Made by a program: the position numbers and the translations under genes | Source: an uncultured Candidatus Peribacteria bacterium | Lineage (GTDB): Bacteria > Patescibacteriota > Gracilibacteria > Peribacterales > Peribacteraceae | NCBI GenBank assembly: GCA_964645935.1 | Contig: CAZYAK010000003.1 | Span: 1 to 57,899, forward strand | Direction of reading: 5' to 3' | Length of the DNA: 57,899 nt | The notes under the pieces: model-generated | Databases searched by the model: none | The model's input: only the letters and a program-made list of their open reading frames with translations | What the model was told of the DNA's origin: nothing | Shown here: piece by piece, positions 31 through 38,675 of the stretch | How the letters are laid out: the number at the start of each line of letters is the position of its first letter | How positions within the stretch are numbered: position 1 is the stretch's first letter

Positions 31-392
31 AGGGTTTCCCGTTTCTTTGTCGCCACAAAGAAACGGGGGAAAGAAAACGCCGACCGCGACAAGCCACCGG
101 CCTCCAGCGGATAGGGGTCCCTCTAGCGGGTGCAATGCTCAAGGAACAGGATCCCTGCGGCCGTAACCGCCTACCCGCCGTGTCCGGTCGAGGGGTAAGG
201 CGAAGACCCTGCTCGGAAGGGGTCAGTGGCTCCAGAAGAATGCCGTATCGATTGCACCCGCGCGCTACCCCTACAACCCAGCCGCAGGTCTTCGACCTGC
301 GGGTGACGATCAAAGCGGCCGCGACCAAACACACACATATCCCCAGTCGCACTGGTCCCGCGGTGCGGACTGGCGATCATGGCGTCCGCCCG
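31..392. repeat. ORF-less structured repeat element, copy A (hairpin 38-67; blocks shared with 27905-28145; inverted TTGATCG-hairpin module at 260-313)
   Basis: Block-wise nucleotide similarity to 27905-28145 and 36594-36703. Perfect 13-bp stem CCCGTTTCTTTGT/ACAAAGAAACGGG. No ORF with coding-like composition. Confidence 0.6.
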
Positions 393-25558: not shown

Positions 25559-26128
25559 TTACGCTCTATCGCGCATTTCGGGGGGTAAAATGGCTTCCAG
25601 CTTCTTGAGGGCGCGGAACTTGAGGATACGAACGGCACCTTCCGTAAGCCGGAGCGTCCGGGCCACCTCGTCCGTGGGCAGCTCTGCCACGTAGGTGAGT
25701 AGCAGTACTTCGCGGTAGCGCCGGGGCAGTTTGTCCACAGCCGCACGAACCACGCGCAACGTGTCTTCCGAGCGCGTGCGGGCATCGGCGCGGTTCCAGG
25801 CATCGGTGTCCTCCAGCTCCTCGGTGACCTCCTCGGTGTCACGCTCCTTGCGGTACGAATCGACCACCGCATGGCGTGCGATGCGAAAGATCCACGCGCC
25901 AAACGGCACGCCCGCCTGGGGCCTATACTGGTGCAGCTTCTCCCAAACCTTCACGAAGACATCGGCCACGATGTCCTCCGCCAGGTCCTGCGGGACACGG
26001 AACGCCGTGTACCGGTAGACGGCCAAGAAGAACTGGTTGTAGAGGCGCTCGAAGGCGCCGCTGTCGCCGTCCCGGGCGAGCGCCACGAGGCGCTGCAGCT
26101 CCGGTTCTGGAAGGGGCTCCGGGGCCAT
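25559..26128 (-). CDS. ECF sigma factor
   Basis: Region 2 (DLAEDIVADVFVKVWEKL..., FGAWIFRIARHAVVD) and canonical region 4 (EVARTLRLTEGAVRILKFRALKKL). Confidence 0.9.
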   Translation of the reverse strand: MAPEPLPEPELQRLVALARDGDSGAFERLYNQFFLAVYRYTAFRVPQDLAEDIVADVFVKVWEKLHQYRPQAGVPFGAWIFRIARHAVVDSYRKERDTEEVTEELEDTDAWNRADARTRSEDTLRVVRAAVDKLPRRYREVLLLTYVAELPTDEVARTLRLTEGAVRILKFRALKKLEAILPPEMRDRA

Positions 26129-26223
26129 GACAGGCGCGCAGTGTACAGGATAACGGACGGAACAGGGGCGGCGCTCACCGGAAAGAACGCGATTTTGCGG
26201 GATTCGTTACAATCGAATGGGCT

Positions 26224-26832
26224 TCAGGCGAGCGGCAGCGCGACGCGACGCGCTGTCTCCGGCTCCAGGATCCCGTCCAGGAAGCGCAGCAGTCGATCAC
26301 GGATGGTCTGGACGGATCCGCCGAGGGATTTCTGCAGGAGGACGAGCGACTTCTTGAGCGCGGCATGGCCGGGAGCGCGCTCATTCGGGCCTTGCAGGTG
26401 TAGCACACCGTAGCCCTTCTGGGCATGCTCGATATCCAGGAATTGCGAATCGGCAGACAGCTTGTCGATCTCGAAGCGATGCGCGAGGAGCTCTTCCGTG
26501 GACAGGCCGAAGAGATGAGCGACCTCGGCGAGCTGAGCGATCCGCTTGCTCACGGCGACATCGCTCTGACCTTCGTAGAAGTGCCCGCAGGCCATATTAG
26601 TGGAAGCCCAAGGGCAATCGGCGGCCATCGTCCCCTCGTCCTCATGGAGCACGCCGCAGCAGACGATCTTCAGCTCCCGCGCCTTGTCCAGGATGACGCG
26701 CGGGACCGCGCCCTTGAGCATCTGCCGCTGGTACTCATCCAGCCACGCGAAGCCCTCCGGATGGCGGGCGGAAGGCAGGGCCTGATCGAGTTGGTCGGCG
26801 GAAAGCACCGGCGGATGGTAAAGATGTTTCAT
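26224..26832 (-). CDS. hypothetical protein (202 aa)
   Basis: ORF trimmed to MKHLYHPP. High GC3. Confidence 0.55.
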   Translation of the reverse strand: MKHLYHPPVLSADQLDQALPSARHPEGFAWLDEYQRQMLKGAVPRVILDKARELKIVCCGVLHEDEGTMAADCPWASTNMACGHFYEGQSDVAVSKRIAQLAEVAHLFGLSTEELLAHRFEIDKLSADSQFLDIEHAQKGYGVLHLQGPNERAPGHAALKKSLVLLQKSLGGSVQTIRDRLLRFLDGILEPETARRVALPLA

Positions 26833-26990
26833 CCGGATGCAACATGGGACGGGGGAAATTCCCTCTTCTCCGCCGAGCGAAGCCACGAAAATACCCAAAA
26901 GTTGACGGAAAACGGCCCGATGTCTAGGGTTTCCGGCCCGGTCCGCTTCGGACCGGTCGCCTGCTCCTTTCCATCGGAGGATCTCGGACC

Positions 26991-27362
26991 ATGCTGCCTC
27001 GCCGTCTCTACTGCGCGACGTACACCTGCCGCTGCACCATCGAATCGTATGCCATCGAAGGCGACGTCGACCCCGACCGCGTCCCCGCCCTCGTCCCGTC
27101 CAGCCCGCACCGGGTGGGCTACCGGCTCCACCACCGCGTGGGCGACGTGGATACTGGCGGGGCCGAGGACTACGGCTGTCTGCACCTGCACAACGCCGTG
27201 CCGGTGGCGATCACGGAGGTACTGCGCCTCCTTCGCACCATGCCGAGCATCGACGTGGGCGACGGCATCACCGACGTGGCGTACGTGGTGACCTGCCGCG
27301 ACTGCGGCAAAAAAGCCCTCGTCCAGGTCACATCGTCCGTCGGCGTCACACTCATCAAGTAA
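26991..27362 (+). CDS. hypothetical Cys-containing protein (123 aa)
   Basis: ORF with YCATYTCRC and TCRDCGKK motifs (possible Zn site). Confidence 0.5.
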   Translation: MLPRRLYCATYTCRCTIESYAIEGDVDPDRVPALVPSSPHRVGYRLHHRVGDVDTGGAEDYGCLHLHNAVPVAITEVLRLLRTMPSIDVGDGITDVAYVVTCRDCGKKALVQVTSSVGVTLIK

Positions 27363-27434
27363 TCCGCCGTCTGGCGCAGGCGTGGGGCATCTCCGGGAGG
27401 TGCCCCATTCGTCATGCTCGCCCCTCGTACGGGT

Positions 27435-27576
27435 GCCGGATTGATCGCCACCCGCGGGGCGGGACCCCCGCGGCTGGGTTAATAGGCGGGTCGGGCCTGG
27501 AAGAGATCATGCTTCTTCAGCCGTACAGCGTCATCAACCGAGTCGAACTTTTCCCGTCTCTACGCTGACACTTTTT
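27435..27576 (+). repeat. TTGATCGCCACCC-hairpin repeat module, copy D
   Basis: The first 45 nt are identical to 36751-36795 (GCCGGATTGATCGCCACCCGCGGGGCGGGACCCCCGCGGCTGGGT). The 3' part is homologous to 36817-36873. Confidence 0.75.
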
Positions 27577-27730
27577 GCACCGGGGTGGGTCAGGAAGGTA
27601 AGGGAGGTCCAGGAGGGGGTAGGGAACCGGACAAGGTTCCCTCCTCTTCCTGGGACCAACCCCTGCCGGAACTATCGGATGAAGGACGACCGAAGCGATG
27701 CGCTTCTGGATCGTACGAAAAAAATGACTG

Positions 27731-27816
27731 CCTCACTCCCACTCAATCGTGCCCGGCGGCTTGTTGGTAAGGTCCAGAAAGACGAGATCGACGCCATCGA
27801 GCGCCAAGACACGCTC
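27731..27816 (-). pseudogene. orphan duplicate of the guaA 3' end (last 27 codons, stop and 2 nt); left copy of an 86-bp direct repeat
   Basis: 86/86 identity with 28392-28477. Encodes ERVLALDGVDLVFLDLTNKPPGTIEWE* but has no upstream guaA sequence. Confidence 0.9.
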
Positions 27817-28391
27817 TGTTATCAAGCCGAGGACGTCGCGTCGTGGGCTTGGGACGCGATCCCCTGGGACAAAGAACTGGAGAACGAAAGCCTCGATCTG
27901 CGAAGAGCTTCCCATTTCTTTGTACGCGACAAAGAAATGGGAGAAAGAAAACGCCGACCTGCCAAGCCGCCGGCCTCCAGCGGATAGGGCTCCGCCGCTC
28001 ACTCGTTGAATCACACGTACCCTCACGCTCCGGCCGCAACCACTGACCTACTGTGGCAGGTCGAGGGGTACGGCTCAGGCCCTGCTCGGAAGGGATCAGT
28101 GGTTTCAGACGAGTGTTGCCAAGGAACCACACAAACAATCACACCCATCTCTGGAGCCCGGCCCCCTCCATGAAGATCGCGCATGCTGTCTGAGGAGGGC
28201 CTGCGGGCCCGACGAGTTCTTGCGCGGGCGCCTTTCTTTCCGCCGTTTCTTTGGCGCGTACAAAGAAACGGCGAACCCTGGCGGAGAAGACTCCCGCTCG
28301 AGAACATGTAGCCCCAGGATCGCACACAAAAAGTACCACCCTCGGTGGTGCGGATGGCACGAGGAGAACAGACGGTTCCATTGATCGCCAC
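27817..28391. mobile_element. 575-bp ORF-less hairpin-rich insert between the guaA-tail repeats (integrated-element remnant or non-autonomous element candidate)
   Basis: Flanked by the 86-bp direct repeats. Inverted copies of the GTTTCTTTG..CAAAGAAAC hairpin at 27911-27941 and 28242-28272. Blocks homologous to 31-270. Ends in TTGATCGCCACC. Confidence 0.45.
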
Positions 28392-28393
28392 CC

Positions 28394-30196
28394 TCACTCC
28401 CACTCAATCGTGCCCGGCGGCTTGTTGGTAAGGTCCAGAAAGACGAGATCGACGCCATCGAGCGCCAAGACACGCTCCGTCATGCTCTGGAGCACGGAAG
28501 GCGGGAGGACGAAGGCGTGGGCCGTCATCGCGTCGGTAGAGACGATAGGGCGCAGCACCACAGACTGGCCACCGGCGCGTGTGCCGAATGGCAGCAGCAC
28601 TACGGGGAACTGCCAGATCTCCCCATCCAAAGCGGCGCGCACCATCTCTTCGTGCACAGCGGCGTCGGCCTCGCGCAGGAGGTCAGCACGCTGACGCGTG
28701 ATGGCCCCGGGGGTGAAGGTGAAGGCGACAGGCGGAGCGGTACGTGAGGTGCAGAGCAGCACGCGATTGAGCGTGGGGTGGGAATTCGGGACCGACGTGG
28801 CTAGATGCAGGTGCTCTTCGGTGACGACGGTTGGCCGGTCCGAGAAGAGCGCCACCGCGTGGCGGTACGTGCGGCCGTCACCCTGCACGCCCACGGACTT
28901 CACGGGGAGGATGGCGTGCGTGCCTAGGCGTGCGGTGTCGCTGCGCCCGGGAAGGTCGGGGCCATTGGCGCAGAGAATGCGCACCCCAAGTCCCGGTCCC
29001 GGGAACGGATGGCGCCACACGAGAGCTTTCGGCAGACCCAGCTCCTCGCCAAGCAGGCGCACTTCGTCTTTGTAGAGCTCCTTGAGCGGCTCGATCACGA
29101 GGCCGGCGTCGATCATCTTCTGCACCGCATCTACACGATTGTGGTGCGTCTTAATATGGTCTGCATGCTTGGTACCGCCAGTCTCGATGGTGTCGGGGTA
29201 GATGGTCCCCTGGCCCAGCATCCAGCCATCCTCCACGCGAAGGTTCAGCCGCTCACTCACGCGCTTCTGCACAGCCAGGAACGTGTCGCCGATGATCTTC
29301 CGCTTAGCCTCGGGCTCGGTCACGCCCTCCAGGTTCTTGAAGAATTCGGCCGAAGCGTCCTCCACTTTGAGGTTGGTGATGCCAAGCTTCTCAAAGGCCT
29401 CCGTAATGAGCGCAACTTCGTTTTTCCGCATCAGGCCCGTGTCGACGAGCAGGCCCTGCACGCGGTCCGCGCCAAGCACCTTGTTGAGGAGCGTGAACGC
29501 GACGGAGGAATCCACGCCGCCGGAGACGAGCATGAAGACCTTGCGATCGCCGACCTCTTTGTTGAGCGCCGCACCCACATGGTCCTCGAAGCTGGTCATG
29601 GACCAGGGCGCAGGCTCGCAGAGCATCACGAAGTTCTTGAGGAGATCCATCCCGTGCTCCGTGTGTGTCACCTCCAGGTGGAACTGCGCGCCGTAGAGAC
29701 GACGCTTCTCGTCCGCCATCGCGGCGTAGTCGCCCACCGCGGTCTTGGCGGACTGCGAGAAGCCCTGGGGCAGGACGCTCACCTCGTCGCCGTGGGACAT
29801 CCACACCGTGAAGGTTTTGGGCAGACCCTTGAAGAGCGCGCCGTGGCTGGTGACGGTAAGGGGCGTCTTGCCGTACTCCTTCACCTTCCCCGGGGTGACC
29901 TTGCCGCCGAGGACCTGGGCCAGCCACTGATGGCCGTAGCAGAGGCCGAGCACGGGGATGCCGAGCTCCAGGATCGTGGGGTCCGCCTGGGGGCTCCCCT
30001 TCTCATACACGCTCTGCGGTCCTCCGGAGAGGATGATCCCCGCGGCGCCTGTGAGCTCCTCAGCCGGCGTCTCCGCCACGCGGATCTCCGAATACGCCCC
30101 CAGACGCCGGACGCGGTTGGCGATGAGGTGGGCGTACTGCCCGCCGAAATCCAGGATGACAATGGAGCCGGGGTGGATGGGAGGCGGGCCCTTCAT
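28394..30196 (-). CDS. guaA: GMP synthase (glutamine-hydrolysing)
   Basis: GATase (ILDFGGQYAHLIANRVR, LGLCYGHQ), the ATP-PPase P-loop SGGVDSS and the canonical C-terminus KPPGTIEWE. Start at MKGPPPIHPG. Confidence 0.95.
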   Translation of the reverse strand: MKGPPPIHPGSIVILDFGGQYAHLIANRVRRLGAYSEIRVAETPAEELTGAAGIILSGGPQSVYEKGSPQADPTILELGIPVLGLCYGHQWLAQVLGGKVTPGKVKEYGKTPLTVTSHGALFKGLPKTFTVWMSHGDEVSVLPQGFSQSAKTAVGDYAAMADEKRRLYGAQFHLEVTHTEHGMDLLKNFVMLCEPAPWSMTSFEDHVGAALNKEVGDRKVFMLVSGGVDSSVAFTLLNKVLGADRVQGLLVDTGLMRKNEVALITEAFEKLGITNLKVEDASAEFFKNLEGVTEPEAKRKIIGDTFLAVQKRVSERLNLRVEDGWMLGQGTIYPDTIETGGTKHADHIKTHHNRVDAVQKMIDAGLVIEPLKELYKDEVRLLGEELGLPKALVWRHPFPGPGLGVRILCANGPDLPGRSDTARLGTHAILPVKSVGVQGDGRTYRHAVALFSDRPTVVTEEHLHLATSVPNSHPTLNRVLLCTSRTAPPVAFTFTPGAITRQRADLLREADAAVHEEMVRAALDGEIWQFPVVLLPFGTRAGGQSVVLRPIVSTDAMTAHAFVLPPSVLQSMTERVLALDGVDLVFLDLTNKPPGTIEWE

Positions 30197-35830: not shown

Positions 35831-36552
35831 CGAAGCACCAGCAACGGAAACACGACGACCGCGTTGAGGATGCGGCCGATCCTTCGCGGTTCCTGGATCA
35901 CCCGCCACAGCCACTCCAGATGCAGACGACGAAGCCACGACGGCGCCCTCACCTGCACGCGAGAGAGGAAATCAAACGTGCCACCCACTCCCATTGCCAC
36001 GCGCACCGTGGGCAGGAGCGGCAGCTGCTCCGTGATCCACAGGTCCTGCGCAGGAGCCCCAAACGCCACCAGCAGCAGCCGCGGTCCGGCAGCGGCAATA
36101 CGTTTGCGGATCTCCGGCGCATCCTCCGGGCGTGGTGATCCTGCGTACGTTCCGGCCACCACGAGCTTGGGGTTCTGGGCATGCAACGCGGCGGCGGCGC
36201 GCTCGGCCACTCCCGGCGCGGCGCCCAAGAGGAACACTGGGCACGCCCCATCGAGCGTCGCACACACCGCCTGCACTGTGTCCACGCCCGTTACCCGCGC
36301 GGGGAGATGCTGGCCCGTCAGACGCGCGGCGAAGAGGAGCCCCGCGCTGTCGGGCAGAGCGAGGTCGGCGGTCTGGAGGGTCTCGCGGAACGCGGCGCTC
36401 TTGGCCGACGCCACGAGCATCTCGCTGTTGGGCGTCACCACGTGTCGACGCCCGGGCGTCTCCAGGAACTCCCGGATGCGCGCCACACCCTCGGCGGCCG
36501 TGACGGCGTCGATGGGGACTCCAAGGAGAAGGACCGTCCGGCGGGTGGACAT
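35788..36552 (-). CDS. WecB/TagA/CpsF-family glycosyltransferase
   Basis: LLGVPIDAVT..., VVTPNSEMLV, LPDSAGLL, FLLGAAPGV and ...FGAPAQDLWI are typical of the family. Start at MSTRRT; the ORF extension to 37236 is rejected. Confidence 0.8.
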   Translation of the reverse strand: MSTRRTVLLLGVPIDAVTAAEGVARIREFLETPGRRHVVTPNSEMLVASAKSAAFRETLQTADLALPDSAGLLFAARLTGQHLPARVTGVDTVQAVCATLDGACPVFLLGAAPGVAERAAAALHAQNPKLVVAGTYAGSPRPEDAPEIRKRIAAAGPRLLLVAFGAPAQDLWITEQLPLLPTVRVAMGVGGTFDFLSRVQVRAPSWLRRLHLEWLWRVIQEPRRIGRILNAVVVFPLLVLRHGRAAPVPMGGPS

Positions 36553-36593
36553 GAGGGAATCGTAGCATGGGACGAGGCTTGGCAGCCGCAACC

Positions 36594-36873
36594 AGACACA
36601 CACAAACGCCCAGCCACACTGGTCCCACGGTGCGAACTGGCAAGGGAAACGGCTGCGCTGATCGCCGCCCGCAGGTCGAAGACCTGCGGCTGGGGTATAG
36701 GGAGGGCTGACCCGGGAGGGAACGATCGGAATGTGTGTTGTCCGGTCGATGCCGGATTGATCGCCACCCGCGGGGCGGGACCCCCGCGGCTGGGTATAGG
36801 GGGTAGCGCGCTTTTCCAGCCGTGCAGCGAGAAAACCGAATCGAACTATCCCCGTCTCTCCGCTGACACGTTT
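36594..36873 (+). repeat. mosaic of repeat modules, copy C (ACACACA/CACTGGTCCC module, then two TGATCGCC-hairpin modules)
   Basis: 36594-36642 is homologous to 325-377. 36658-36703 is homologous to the reverse complement of 260-313. 36751-36873 is homologous to 27435-27576. Confidence 0.75.
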
Positions 36874-36898
36874 CCCCCGACCCGCTACTCTACGCCGG

Positions 36899-37687
36899 AT
36901 GACCCCCCGCCTCGCCCTCCTCGCCCTCATACTTGCCCTGCCCCTCGCGGCCTGCGACGCGCTCCTAAACGAGGACGCGATGAACGACCTGGTTCCCTCG
37001 GTTTCGGAAATCGCAGTCTCCTCGGCCACCGCTTCGTCGGAGGCTCCGTTGCCGCCGGAGGATCCCACGGCGCCCTTGGAATCAGGCGACGTGTCGGTGA
37101 CGGCGTCAGGGTCAGCGGCGGTCGCGGCCATGCCCCCGGAGGATCCCGGCTTCGCAGACGACGAGCGCGTACTCGACAGCGGAGTGCTGCAACTGGGCGA
37201 CGTGAACGCGCCAGTACTCGTGACCGTGTACATCAACCACGCGTCGCCCTACAGCCGCGCCTTCACCGACGACTACCTGCCCAAGCTCCTGGCCGGATTC
37301 GTGCGCCGGGGCGAACTCAAACTCACCATTGTGTCGATACCGTTCCAGAAGTACCCCAACTCTCGCGCCGAGGCCGCCGGCCTCCTCTGTGCCGCGCGGC
37401 AGGGCAAGGGCCTCGCCATGCACCGCGCGCTTGCAGCACTTTCCGTGCGCACGGATGCGAGTATGCGCACGGCCGCGACGGACCTGGCGGTGGACCCCGC
37501 CGCCTTTGACGCGTGTCTCCGGGACCCCGCCACCTCAACCGCCATAGACGAGCAGGCAAGTCTAGCAGCCAGTAACGGCGCAACGCTCGTGCCGTCCTTT
37601 GATTTCGACGCCGAGACCGAGATGGTGCAGGGGCTGATGGACTACCCGGACCTGCGCGGACGGATCGAGCGGACGCTCCGGCACTGA
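36899..37687 (+). CDS. DsbA-like thioredoxin-fold lipoprotein with SPYS in place of CxxC
   Basis: Lipobox LALPLAAC. VLVTVYINHASPYSRAF aligns with the DsbA-family F/D-x-C-P-x-C-x-x-F site. Confidence 0.6.
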   Translation: MTPRLALLALILALPLAACDALLNEDAMNDLVPSVSEIAVSSATASSEAPLPPEDPTAPLESGDVSVTASGSAAVAAMPPEDPGFADDERVLDSGVLQLGDVNAPVLVTVYINHASPYSRAFTDDYLPKLLAGFVRRGELKLTIVSIPFQKYPNSRAEAAGLLCAARQGKGLAMHRALAALSVRTDASMRTAATDLAVDPAAFDACLRDPATSTAIDEQASLAASNGATLVPSFDFDAETEMVQGLMDYPDLRGRIERTLRH

Positions 37688-38534: not shown

Positions 38535-38675
38535 GGTGTGCAGGAGGAAGGAACACCAGGGTGTCATGGTTCGACGGGCTCACCATGACAGGTGGGGCTC
38601 GTTCATCATGAAACAGCCACCAGGAAAGCATGTCACGCTGAACCCGTCGAAGCGCGACATGCGGCCCCGAAGCCC

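Follow-up and report, generated by a model that had tools for sequence, protein, structure and literature searches.

A probable REP-RAYT system with three hairpin heads on one foot in an uncultured Peribacteraceae bacterium

Introduction

What kind of element are the hairpin-forming repeats that fill a spacer between two divergently transcribed genes of an uncultured Peribacteraceae bacterium (CPR/Peregrinibacteria), and what could have brought them there? The spacer lies in a stretch of 57,899 nucleotides, all of which was analysed and is called the window here; it is contig C3 of a 1.63-Mb assembly (64% G+C, 130 contigs, designated below by C and a number). An original prediction, made from the letters of the window, had taken the repeats for a family of shuffled and inverted modules resembling BIME/REP mosaics, and had pointed to HUH enzymes of the RAYT or IS200-like kind as those that cut at the feet of such hairpins. 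REP-RAYT systems have been characterised mainly in Proteobacteria. From a census of the repeats, a search for enzymes and a comparison with relatives, we conclude that the repeats probably belong to a REP/BIME-RAYT ('REPtron') system, a reading to which we assign a probability of about 0.72.

Results

The focal spacer and its repeats

The two identical 45-nt copies, 9 kb apart, on which the original prediction was built were recovered by a repeat finder in the window and extend to 46 nt at 100% identity (27434-27479 and 36750-36795). As had been described, both continue into a homologous tail (36810-36873 versus 27511-27575, 81.5% over 65 nt), and a sister version of the hairpin at 36650-36702 has its inverted partner near the start of the window (269-321, 87% complementary over 53 nt). 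These stretches resolve into the following features, in which the hairpins are read as REP units named H1, H2 and H3.

36586-36610, plus strand: arm L (CCGCAACCAGACACACACAAACGCC), an ACACAC-rich motif (nhmmer module L), before H1 in 24/24 H1 copies
36610-36641, plus strand: REP unit H1, tag-first and slightly degenerate, CCAG CCACAC-TGGTCCCACG-GTGCGA ACTGG (genome consensus CCAGCCGCACTGGTCCCGCGGTGCGGACTGGC)
36659-36702, minus strand: REP unit H2, tag-first on this strand, CCCAG CCGCAGGTC-TTC-GACCTGCGG GCGG CGATCA (profile search and alignment)
36703-36727, no strand assigned: linker K (AGGGCTGACCCGGGAGGGAACGATC) between H2 and arm R (nhmmer module K, 6 copies)
36728-36757, minus strand: arm R (GGAATGTGTGTTGTCCGGTCGATGCCGGAT), the arm L motif in inverted form, adjoining H3 (profile search)
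36758-36810, minus strand: REP unit H3, on this strand CCCAG CCGCGGGG-GTCCCG-CCCCGCGG GTGG CGATCAA, including the GGGGGTAGCGCGC end
36811-36873, plus strand: D tail (CAGCCGTGCAGCG...CCGTCTCTCCGCTGACAC), a separate repeat module, here joined to H3 (5 clear genome copies and a partial one on C72)
27434-27486, minus strand: solo H3 unit, identical over 46 nt to 36750-36795 (repeat finder and profile search)
27500-27575, plus strand: second copy of the D tail (homology to 36811-36873)
261-312, plus strand: H2 unit in the opposite orientation, tag-first on the plus strand, CCCAGCCGCAGGTCTTCGACCTGCGGGTGACGATCA (repeat finder and profile search)
321-374, plus strand: arm L and H1 unit, directly after H2 (profile search)
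28323-28393, plus strand: degenerate arm, H1, linker and TTGATCGCCACCC, adjoining the guaA stop codon (local alignment against shuffles)

The 46-mer at 36750-36795 covers the end of arm R and most of the H3 unit. At the start of the window H1 follows immediately upon H2, so that the two units stand there in direct, not inverted, order. The original prediction had further distinguished an ACACACA/CACTGG module, found at 36586-36641 and 321-374, with opposite orientations relative to the adjoining hairpin at the two loci; the orientations held, but the module is not a separate one, since its hairpin is the same REP in opposite polarity. In a similar way, the 13-mer TTGATCGCCACCC does abut the guaA stop codon (28381-28393), as had been noted, but what adjoins guaA is not the 13-mer only, as a degenerate arm, H1 and a linker precede it. 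This copy reached a local alignment score of 24, against 9.3 +/- 1.7 (maximum 17) for shuffles, and is truncated precisely at the 5' foot of the next hairpin, which is missing. No tRNAs were found in the window.

The D tail and further pieces represent separate repeat families that are joined combinatorially. The D tail and the ~90-nt piece that follows it (CCAGGAGGGGGTAGGGAACCGGACAAGGTTCCCTCC...), with 5 clear and ~10 copies respectively, were located at 36811-36873 and 27500-27730 of the window, C56:735-985, C126 and C8:15182-15470, and only some loci have them joined to H3. A further dispersed repeat (GTGAGCCCGTCGAACCATGAC ... CTTCGACGAGCTCAGGGTGAC) occurs in the window at ~38560-38650 (minus strand), at C4:14928-15047 and at ~14 more places; unlike the H1/H2/H3 family, it is also found in the same-genus genome G001, in at least 15 places and with 68-94% identity.

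A dispersed intergenic family

A census of the 13-mer and its hairpins, which the original prediction had called for, showed a family that reaches well past three loci. The 13-mer has 16 exact occurrences in 1.63 Mb, against ~0.05 expected (2 x 1.63e6 / 4^13), and blastn with 36580-36880 returned about 30 loci in the assembly. The whole ~230-nt composite is present at 8 loci (C2:242, C3:36580, C4:15636, C5:24769, C20:12846, C37:9592, C40:5348 and C56:512), and hairpin profiles derived from these full copies detected 24 H1, 18 H2 and 21 H3 units across the assembly, 63 in all, at 32 loci. All 32 loci are intergenic, with 0/63 units inside called genes, although gene context rests here on a crude GC3-based caller that made at least one error at the focal locus. 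As a contig end lies within ~600 nt at 17/32 loci, the repeats break the assembly, and the unit counts are therefore minima.

The copies are very much alike: over 32 nt there is no difference among 18/24 H1 copies, and the H3 head hardly varies, which argues for recent copying from a master sequence. An exact H1 25-mer had 0 matches in 185,579 species genomes and a single match among metagenome contigs, in a contig from a microbial mat (ENA ORBV01173399, here L155, 870-925). That copy, the sole exact H1 found outside the genome, has unrelated flanks and adjoins a variant of a fold-back family (TTTCTTTGT...ACAAAGAAA). In the focal genome H1 is fused directly to this fold-back family at three contig ends (C2:64486-64890, C64:8354-8462 and C78:6229-6348), and the family is also present at 23-76 and 27905-28290 of the window. 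Second in frequency among the 16-mers of the genome, at 20-21 copies, are those of a tandem 8-mer, (GAGTGACG)n, located at C7:3, C55:4, C19:23757, C13:20244, C10:2818 and C59:8678, several of these places being contig ends.

A constant foot under variable heads

Each unit is a ~30-nt imperfect palindrome, and H1, H2 and H3 share foot and flanks, CC-CAG CCGC...GCGG (A/G)(C)TGG CGA(TCA), when aligned with the CCAG tag first, H1 as written and H2 and H3 reverse-complemented:

H1: CC-CAG CCGCAC TGGTCCCGCG GTGCGG A CTGG CGA
H3: CC-CAG CCGCGGGG GTCCCG CCCCGCGG G TGG CGATCAA
H2: CC-CAG CCGCAGGTC TTC GACCTGCGG G TGG CGATCA

On this foot H1 carries the loop GGTCCCG over an upper stem of A-T/C-G/T.G, H3 the same loop over G-C/G-C/G-C, and H2 the head GGTC-TTC-GACC. 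The 12-bp stem of H1, with its bulged A, is paired in 88-100% of the 24 copies. H1 and H3 differ at three stacked pairs (9-22, 10-21 and 11-20), and the differences are fully compensated: the pairs are A-T/C-G/T.G in 24/24 H1 copies and G-C each in 17-19/20 H3 copies, the H3 exceptions being G.T wobbles, one compensated A-T and one A.C mismatch. A compensated A-T pair was seen in one H3 copy (C72) and in one H2 copy (C103). In one copy, on C65, the H2 slot holds the head of the REP type that belongs to the second RAYT of the genome (see below). The 5' tag is CCAG in 60/62 aligned units, where GTAG-tagged REPs would have GTAG. Folding of the whole composite as single-stranded DNA, on both strands, was no better than that of shuffles (z = 0.19 and -1.65), so the case for structure is one of covariation. 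By these alignments, H1, H2 and H3 are the same REP element with three different heads. The claim that the hairpin itself is the selected feature holds, given compensated head changes on a constant foot, and it extends to the ACACACA/CACTGG module.

Compensated stems are also what would be seen if these were RNA elements (3'-end stabilisers, terminators or a structured small RNA), kept for the fold of their transcript and spread by recombination with no enzyme. In line with this, the wobbles are mostly G.T on the tag-first strand (T.G at 11-20 in 24/24 H1 copies; 3 G.T versus 1 A.C in H3), the crude gene calls place most loci behind the ends of genes, in spacers of the tandem or convergent kind, and REPs elsewhere are reported to function as RNA elements (Di Nocera 2013, PMC3733652). 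We nevertheless consider it unlikely. Rfam gave no match at gathering score in the whole window and none at E <= 1 in 36500-36950, and the family is missing from a congener at orthologous sites. Opposite-polarity units stand side by side, so that no one transcript direction reads all of them in the same sense. Duplicated terminators, the case that the original prediction had set against itself, do not describe the repeats either: no T-run follows the hairpins, the sole terminator-like match is a weak 5-bp stem, and the focal copy lies between divergent gene starts. A mobile REP that has a role as RNA in second place would agree with the RNA explanation.

Composites of alternating polarity

The order in the composite is arm L-H1(+), a ~17-nt linker, H2(-), K, arm R-H3(-) and, in some copies, the D tail. 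A cyclic permutation, H3(-)-arm-H1(+), is present at 6 loci (C34, C36, C42, C43, C46 and C103), together with short H1-H3 forms that lack H2 and single units of H1, H2 or H3 alone. REPs in alternating orientation joined by few conserved linkers are the mark of BIMEs, and the predicted likeness to shuffled BIME mosaics was borne out by the alternating polarity and the fixed linkers. Arms L and R are homologous, as inverted copies of one motif; their pairing as a helix was rejected because their differences are uncompensated between copies, and they are treated here as a sequence motif. The composite has H2 and H3 in direct order and is therefore no simple REPIN, and the inverted doublets pair unlike heads (H1 with H2, H3 with H1), their feet being complementary and their heads not.

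Gain relative to a same-genus genome

The presence/absence differences between relatives that the original prediction had asked for were seen at two orthologous sites of the congener G001, a genome with no copy of the H1/H2/H3 family. The focal divergent spacer (window 36552-36899, bounded by the starts of the upstream minus-strand gene and of a DsbA-like lipoprotein gene) measures 346 nt here versus ~40 nt in G001, and the clpP-tgt spacer, which includes the composite C5:24537-24769, ~360 nt versus ~80 nt; at both, the composite is there in full or missing in full, as a block. Between an ECF sigma gene and guaA (window 26128-28394) there are ~2.26 kb here, with two ORFs and ~1 kb of repeat mosaic, and ~270 nt in G001 (C4:12070-12340), a difference of ~2 kb that, because it includes the two ORFs, is no clean insertion. 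At the C4 locus an extra gene in the congener makes the orthologous comparison uninformative. On these sequence comparisons, the family appears to have been gained relative to G001.

Presence or absence as a block is also what would be expected of a MITE, with the ~35-nt ACACAC arms L and R as terminal inverted repeats mobilised by a DDE-type or other classical transposase, and the arms are indeed inverted copies of one motif that enclose H1-H2-K. Yet H3 lies outside the arm pair and is part of the composite in 8/8 full copies, while modules occur alone (H1, H2 or H3) or reordered (H3-arm-H1). Moreover, searching the genome by blastn and with profiles revealed no full-length element with such ends, target-site duplications could not be delimited, and TnpB and IS110 transposases are absent from the assembly. 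A MITE is thus a very improbable explanation for the composite.

Two RAYT genes

Pfam Y1_Tnp matched two genes in the whole assembly, C43:11256-11780(-) and C22:20185-20622(-), and none in the window, from which an HUH enzyme had been predicted to be absent. Both proteins pass the NCBIfam model NF047646 for REP-associated tyrosine transposases (82.9 and 87.6 bits, cut-off 80) and fall far below the cut-off of the IS200 model (22.7 and 18.9 versus 55 bits). The best match among solved structures was E. coli TnpA_REP (4ER8, E = 1e-5); against it, PDHVHLL in the HUH motif aligned with PEHMHCI, and RYIHLNPV in the tyrosine motif with DYIYINPV (YIxxNPV). An IS605-type TnpB and an IS110 transposase, which had been considered as candidate enzymes, were not found in the assembly. 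An IS200/IS605 element or a PATE derived from one was rejected, with the Y1 proteins under the IS200 cut-off and no TnpB found.

The C43 RAYT, whose reading frame and catalytic motifs are intact, lies downstream of groEL, and between the two genes there are a terminator-like hairpin, H3(-), an arm and H1(+). This doublet is ~75-250 nt upstream of the RAYT, H1 ending ~75 nt before its first possible start. Copies of the family are on the 5' side only, and the two-sided REPtron layout is not seen at this gene. An over-represented 16-mer in the extragenic flank of a RAYT is the criterion by which REPIN-RAYT pairs are recognised (Bertels et al. 2017, PMC5581495), and in the 5' flank of the C43 gene lies the H1 core, which at 22 copies is the commonest 16-mer in the genome; the top 16-mer of spacers has a median of 1 occurrence, and 2% of spacers reach 15. 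The flanking 16-mers of the C22 RAYT reach a maximum of 2. By adjacency alone, the C43 RAYT would be the one of the two that serves the H1/H2/H3 family. The C22 RAYT (145 aa; C22:20100-20800) has on both sides inverted pairs of a different, related, low-copy REP, GGGAGCGGCCTTTCTGCCCGCGGTCC, with ~7 convincing copies among 11 pattern matches.

RAYTs and REPs in relatives and other lineages

The single RAYT of G001 is 52-56% identical to both RAYTs of the focal genome. Homologues of the C43 RAYT were found in 65/121 sampled genomes of the family, up to 10 per genome, and 8/8 of those tested pass NF047646. No orthologue with a known REP head could be assigned to the C43 RAYT, since its top relatives are all 55-59% identical and have various heads. 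Many RAYTs of these relatives stand between a REP(+) on the upstream side and a REP(-) on the downstream side, both built on an NNAG-C(C/G)G foot and with various heads. Tags seen in relatives are CCAG, TTAG, ATAG, CTAG and, occasionally, GTAG. The exact H2 head is present in 8/121 family genomes, with 23 copies in G071, where a RAYT on C20 has it on both sides, as one copy upstream and as an array with a 42-nt period downstream. In G059 and G122, too, a RAYT has the H2-head hairpin no more than ~2 kb away, and in G015 a close variant is found at such a distance. Co-occurrence of head and RAYT (7/8 head-bearing genomes, against a background of 65/121) is weakly informative.

A 19-20-nt hairpin, CGC(A/G)GGTC-TTC-GACC(C/T)GCG, is multi-copy in unrelated phyla (among them Planctomycetaceae Gx481_bin193, Planctomycetia F1-60, Terriglobales SRP237561_co1_275, Prevotella MAGs and Opitutaceae), with flanks that differ per lineage, some of them GTAG-tagged. 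The H2 head with a true GTAG tag was found in a Peribacteria genome, in Opitutaceae and in a Prevotella genome. Opposite the TTC, the top strand of H2 reads C-GAA-G, which is the central part of d(GCGAAGC), a DNA mini-hairpin of unusual stability, and this may be the reason for the recurrence of the H2 head in unrelated phyla.

The units could also be relics that owe a passive spread to gene conversion and to recombination, illegitimate or homologous, and the RAYT beside them could be there by coincidence or be inactive. Chimeric joints are frequent, as would be expected then (H1-H3 without H2, the truncation at the guaA stop, joints to two other repeat families), and the C43 RAYT has copies on one flank only. 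Such passive spread is nevertheless improbable given the near-identity of the H1 copies and H3 heads, the presence of the top 16-mer of the genome in the RAYT flank, the recurrence of the REP-RAYT-REP layout in many relatives, and the intact reading frame and catalytic motifs of the RAYT.

Discussion

The repeats thus probably represent a REP/BIME-RAYT system in a Peribacteraceae genome, a reading that draws on the family itself, the constraint on its hairpins, the RAYT genes, their adjacency to the repeats and the absence of the family from the congener. Cleavage, the strand used and transposition itself would follow the pattern of the systems of E. coli, Stenotrophomonas and Marinomonas (PMC8266576), from which we infer them. 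The lagging-strand template is the one preferred by HUH elements of the IS200/IS605 family. By analogy, the C43 RAYT, as an HUH/Y1 enzyme, would recognise the folded single-stranded hairpin through its conserved foot and tag, with cutting and rejoining to follow next to the hairpin; in this way new intergenic sites would receive copies of single units or of blocks, and these would also recombine among themselves. Four observations go against a simple fit, namely the CCAG tag in place of GTAG, the one-sided flank of the C43 RAYT, the direct order of H2 and H3, and the doublets of unlike heads.

The known REPtrons of Escherichia coli, Stenotrophomonas and Marinomonas (Ton-Hoang 2012; Messing 2012, PDB 4ER8; Corneloup 2021, PMC8266576) have in common with this system short imperfect palindromes with a bulge or mismatch close to the foot and a conserved 5' motif that is unpaired, intergenic copies that number in the tens, an HUH/Y1 enzyme of the RAYT kind encoded beside copies and, in related genomes, the REP(+)-gene-REP(-) polarity. 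They differ from it in their GTAG tag (CCAG here, NNAG in relatives), whereas this system has three heads on one foot, copies on the 5' side only at the C43 RAYT and a 1.6-Mb CPR host. The numbers of RAYT genes differ too, as relatives of the focal genome have up to 10 paralogues per genome and RAYTs have been reported at about 1-2 per replicon (PMC5581495).

Enterobacterial BIMEs resemble the composites in their REPs of alternating polarity, their small set of fixed linkers and a cluster composition that varies by locus. The linkers here are, however, of their own kind (ACACAC arm, K and D tail), H2 and H3 are in direct order, and no IHF- or gyrase-type linker motif is known here, so the likeness is one of architecture only. 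With the REPINs of Group 2/3 RAYTs in Pseudomonas and Enterobacteria (Bertels and Rainey 2011, PMC3116915; Bertels 2017, PMC5581495), the family shares the commonest 16-mer of the genome in the extragenic flank of a RAYT and inverted doublets, H3(-)-arm-H1(+) at 6 loci and H1(+)-H2(-) in composites. It differs in its modest copy number (63 units) and in the numerous RAYT paralogues of the bacterial family; moreover, doublet members with different heads could not fold into one long perfect hairpin, as REPINs do. The superfamily of GTAG-tagged REPs (Di Nocera 2013, PMC3733652) likewise combines a palindrome with an unpaired tag ending in AG at one end, but essentially all copies of the focal genome have CCAG in its place.

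Systems of this kind are known, but we found no paper that describes one in this lineage. Our literature search returned no paper linking RAYTs or REPs with Peregrinibacteria or Peribacteria, and a broad phylogenomics paper on HUH enzymes does not mention CPR groups (PMC6006769).

We tentatively suggest, at somewhat short of an even chance, that Peribacteraceae (~1-1.6 Mb) keep diversified RAYT paralogues, each paired with REPs that have an NNAG-C(C/G)G foot and different heads, and that in the focal genome one such pair expanded, the foot staying constant while heads are swapped (H1, H2, H3 and that of the other RAYT). Foot and tag, not the head, would in that case be what recognition depends on. 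One foot with three or four heads, with H1 and H3 set apart by three fully compensated pairs, is a ready series of substrates for finding which part of a REP a RAYT reads. The repeats at 17 contig ends help to explain the fragmented assemblies of this lineage. Seen more broadly, ultra-small CPR genomes give intergenic space to elements of this type and keep several RAYT paralogues.
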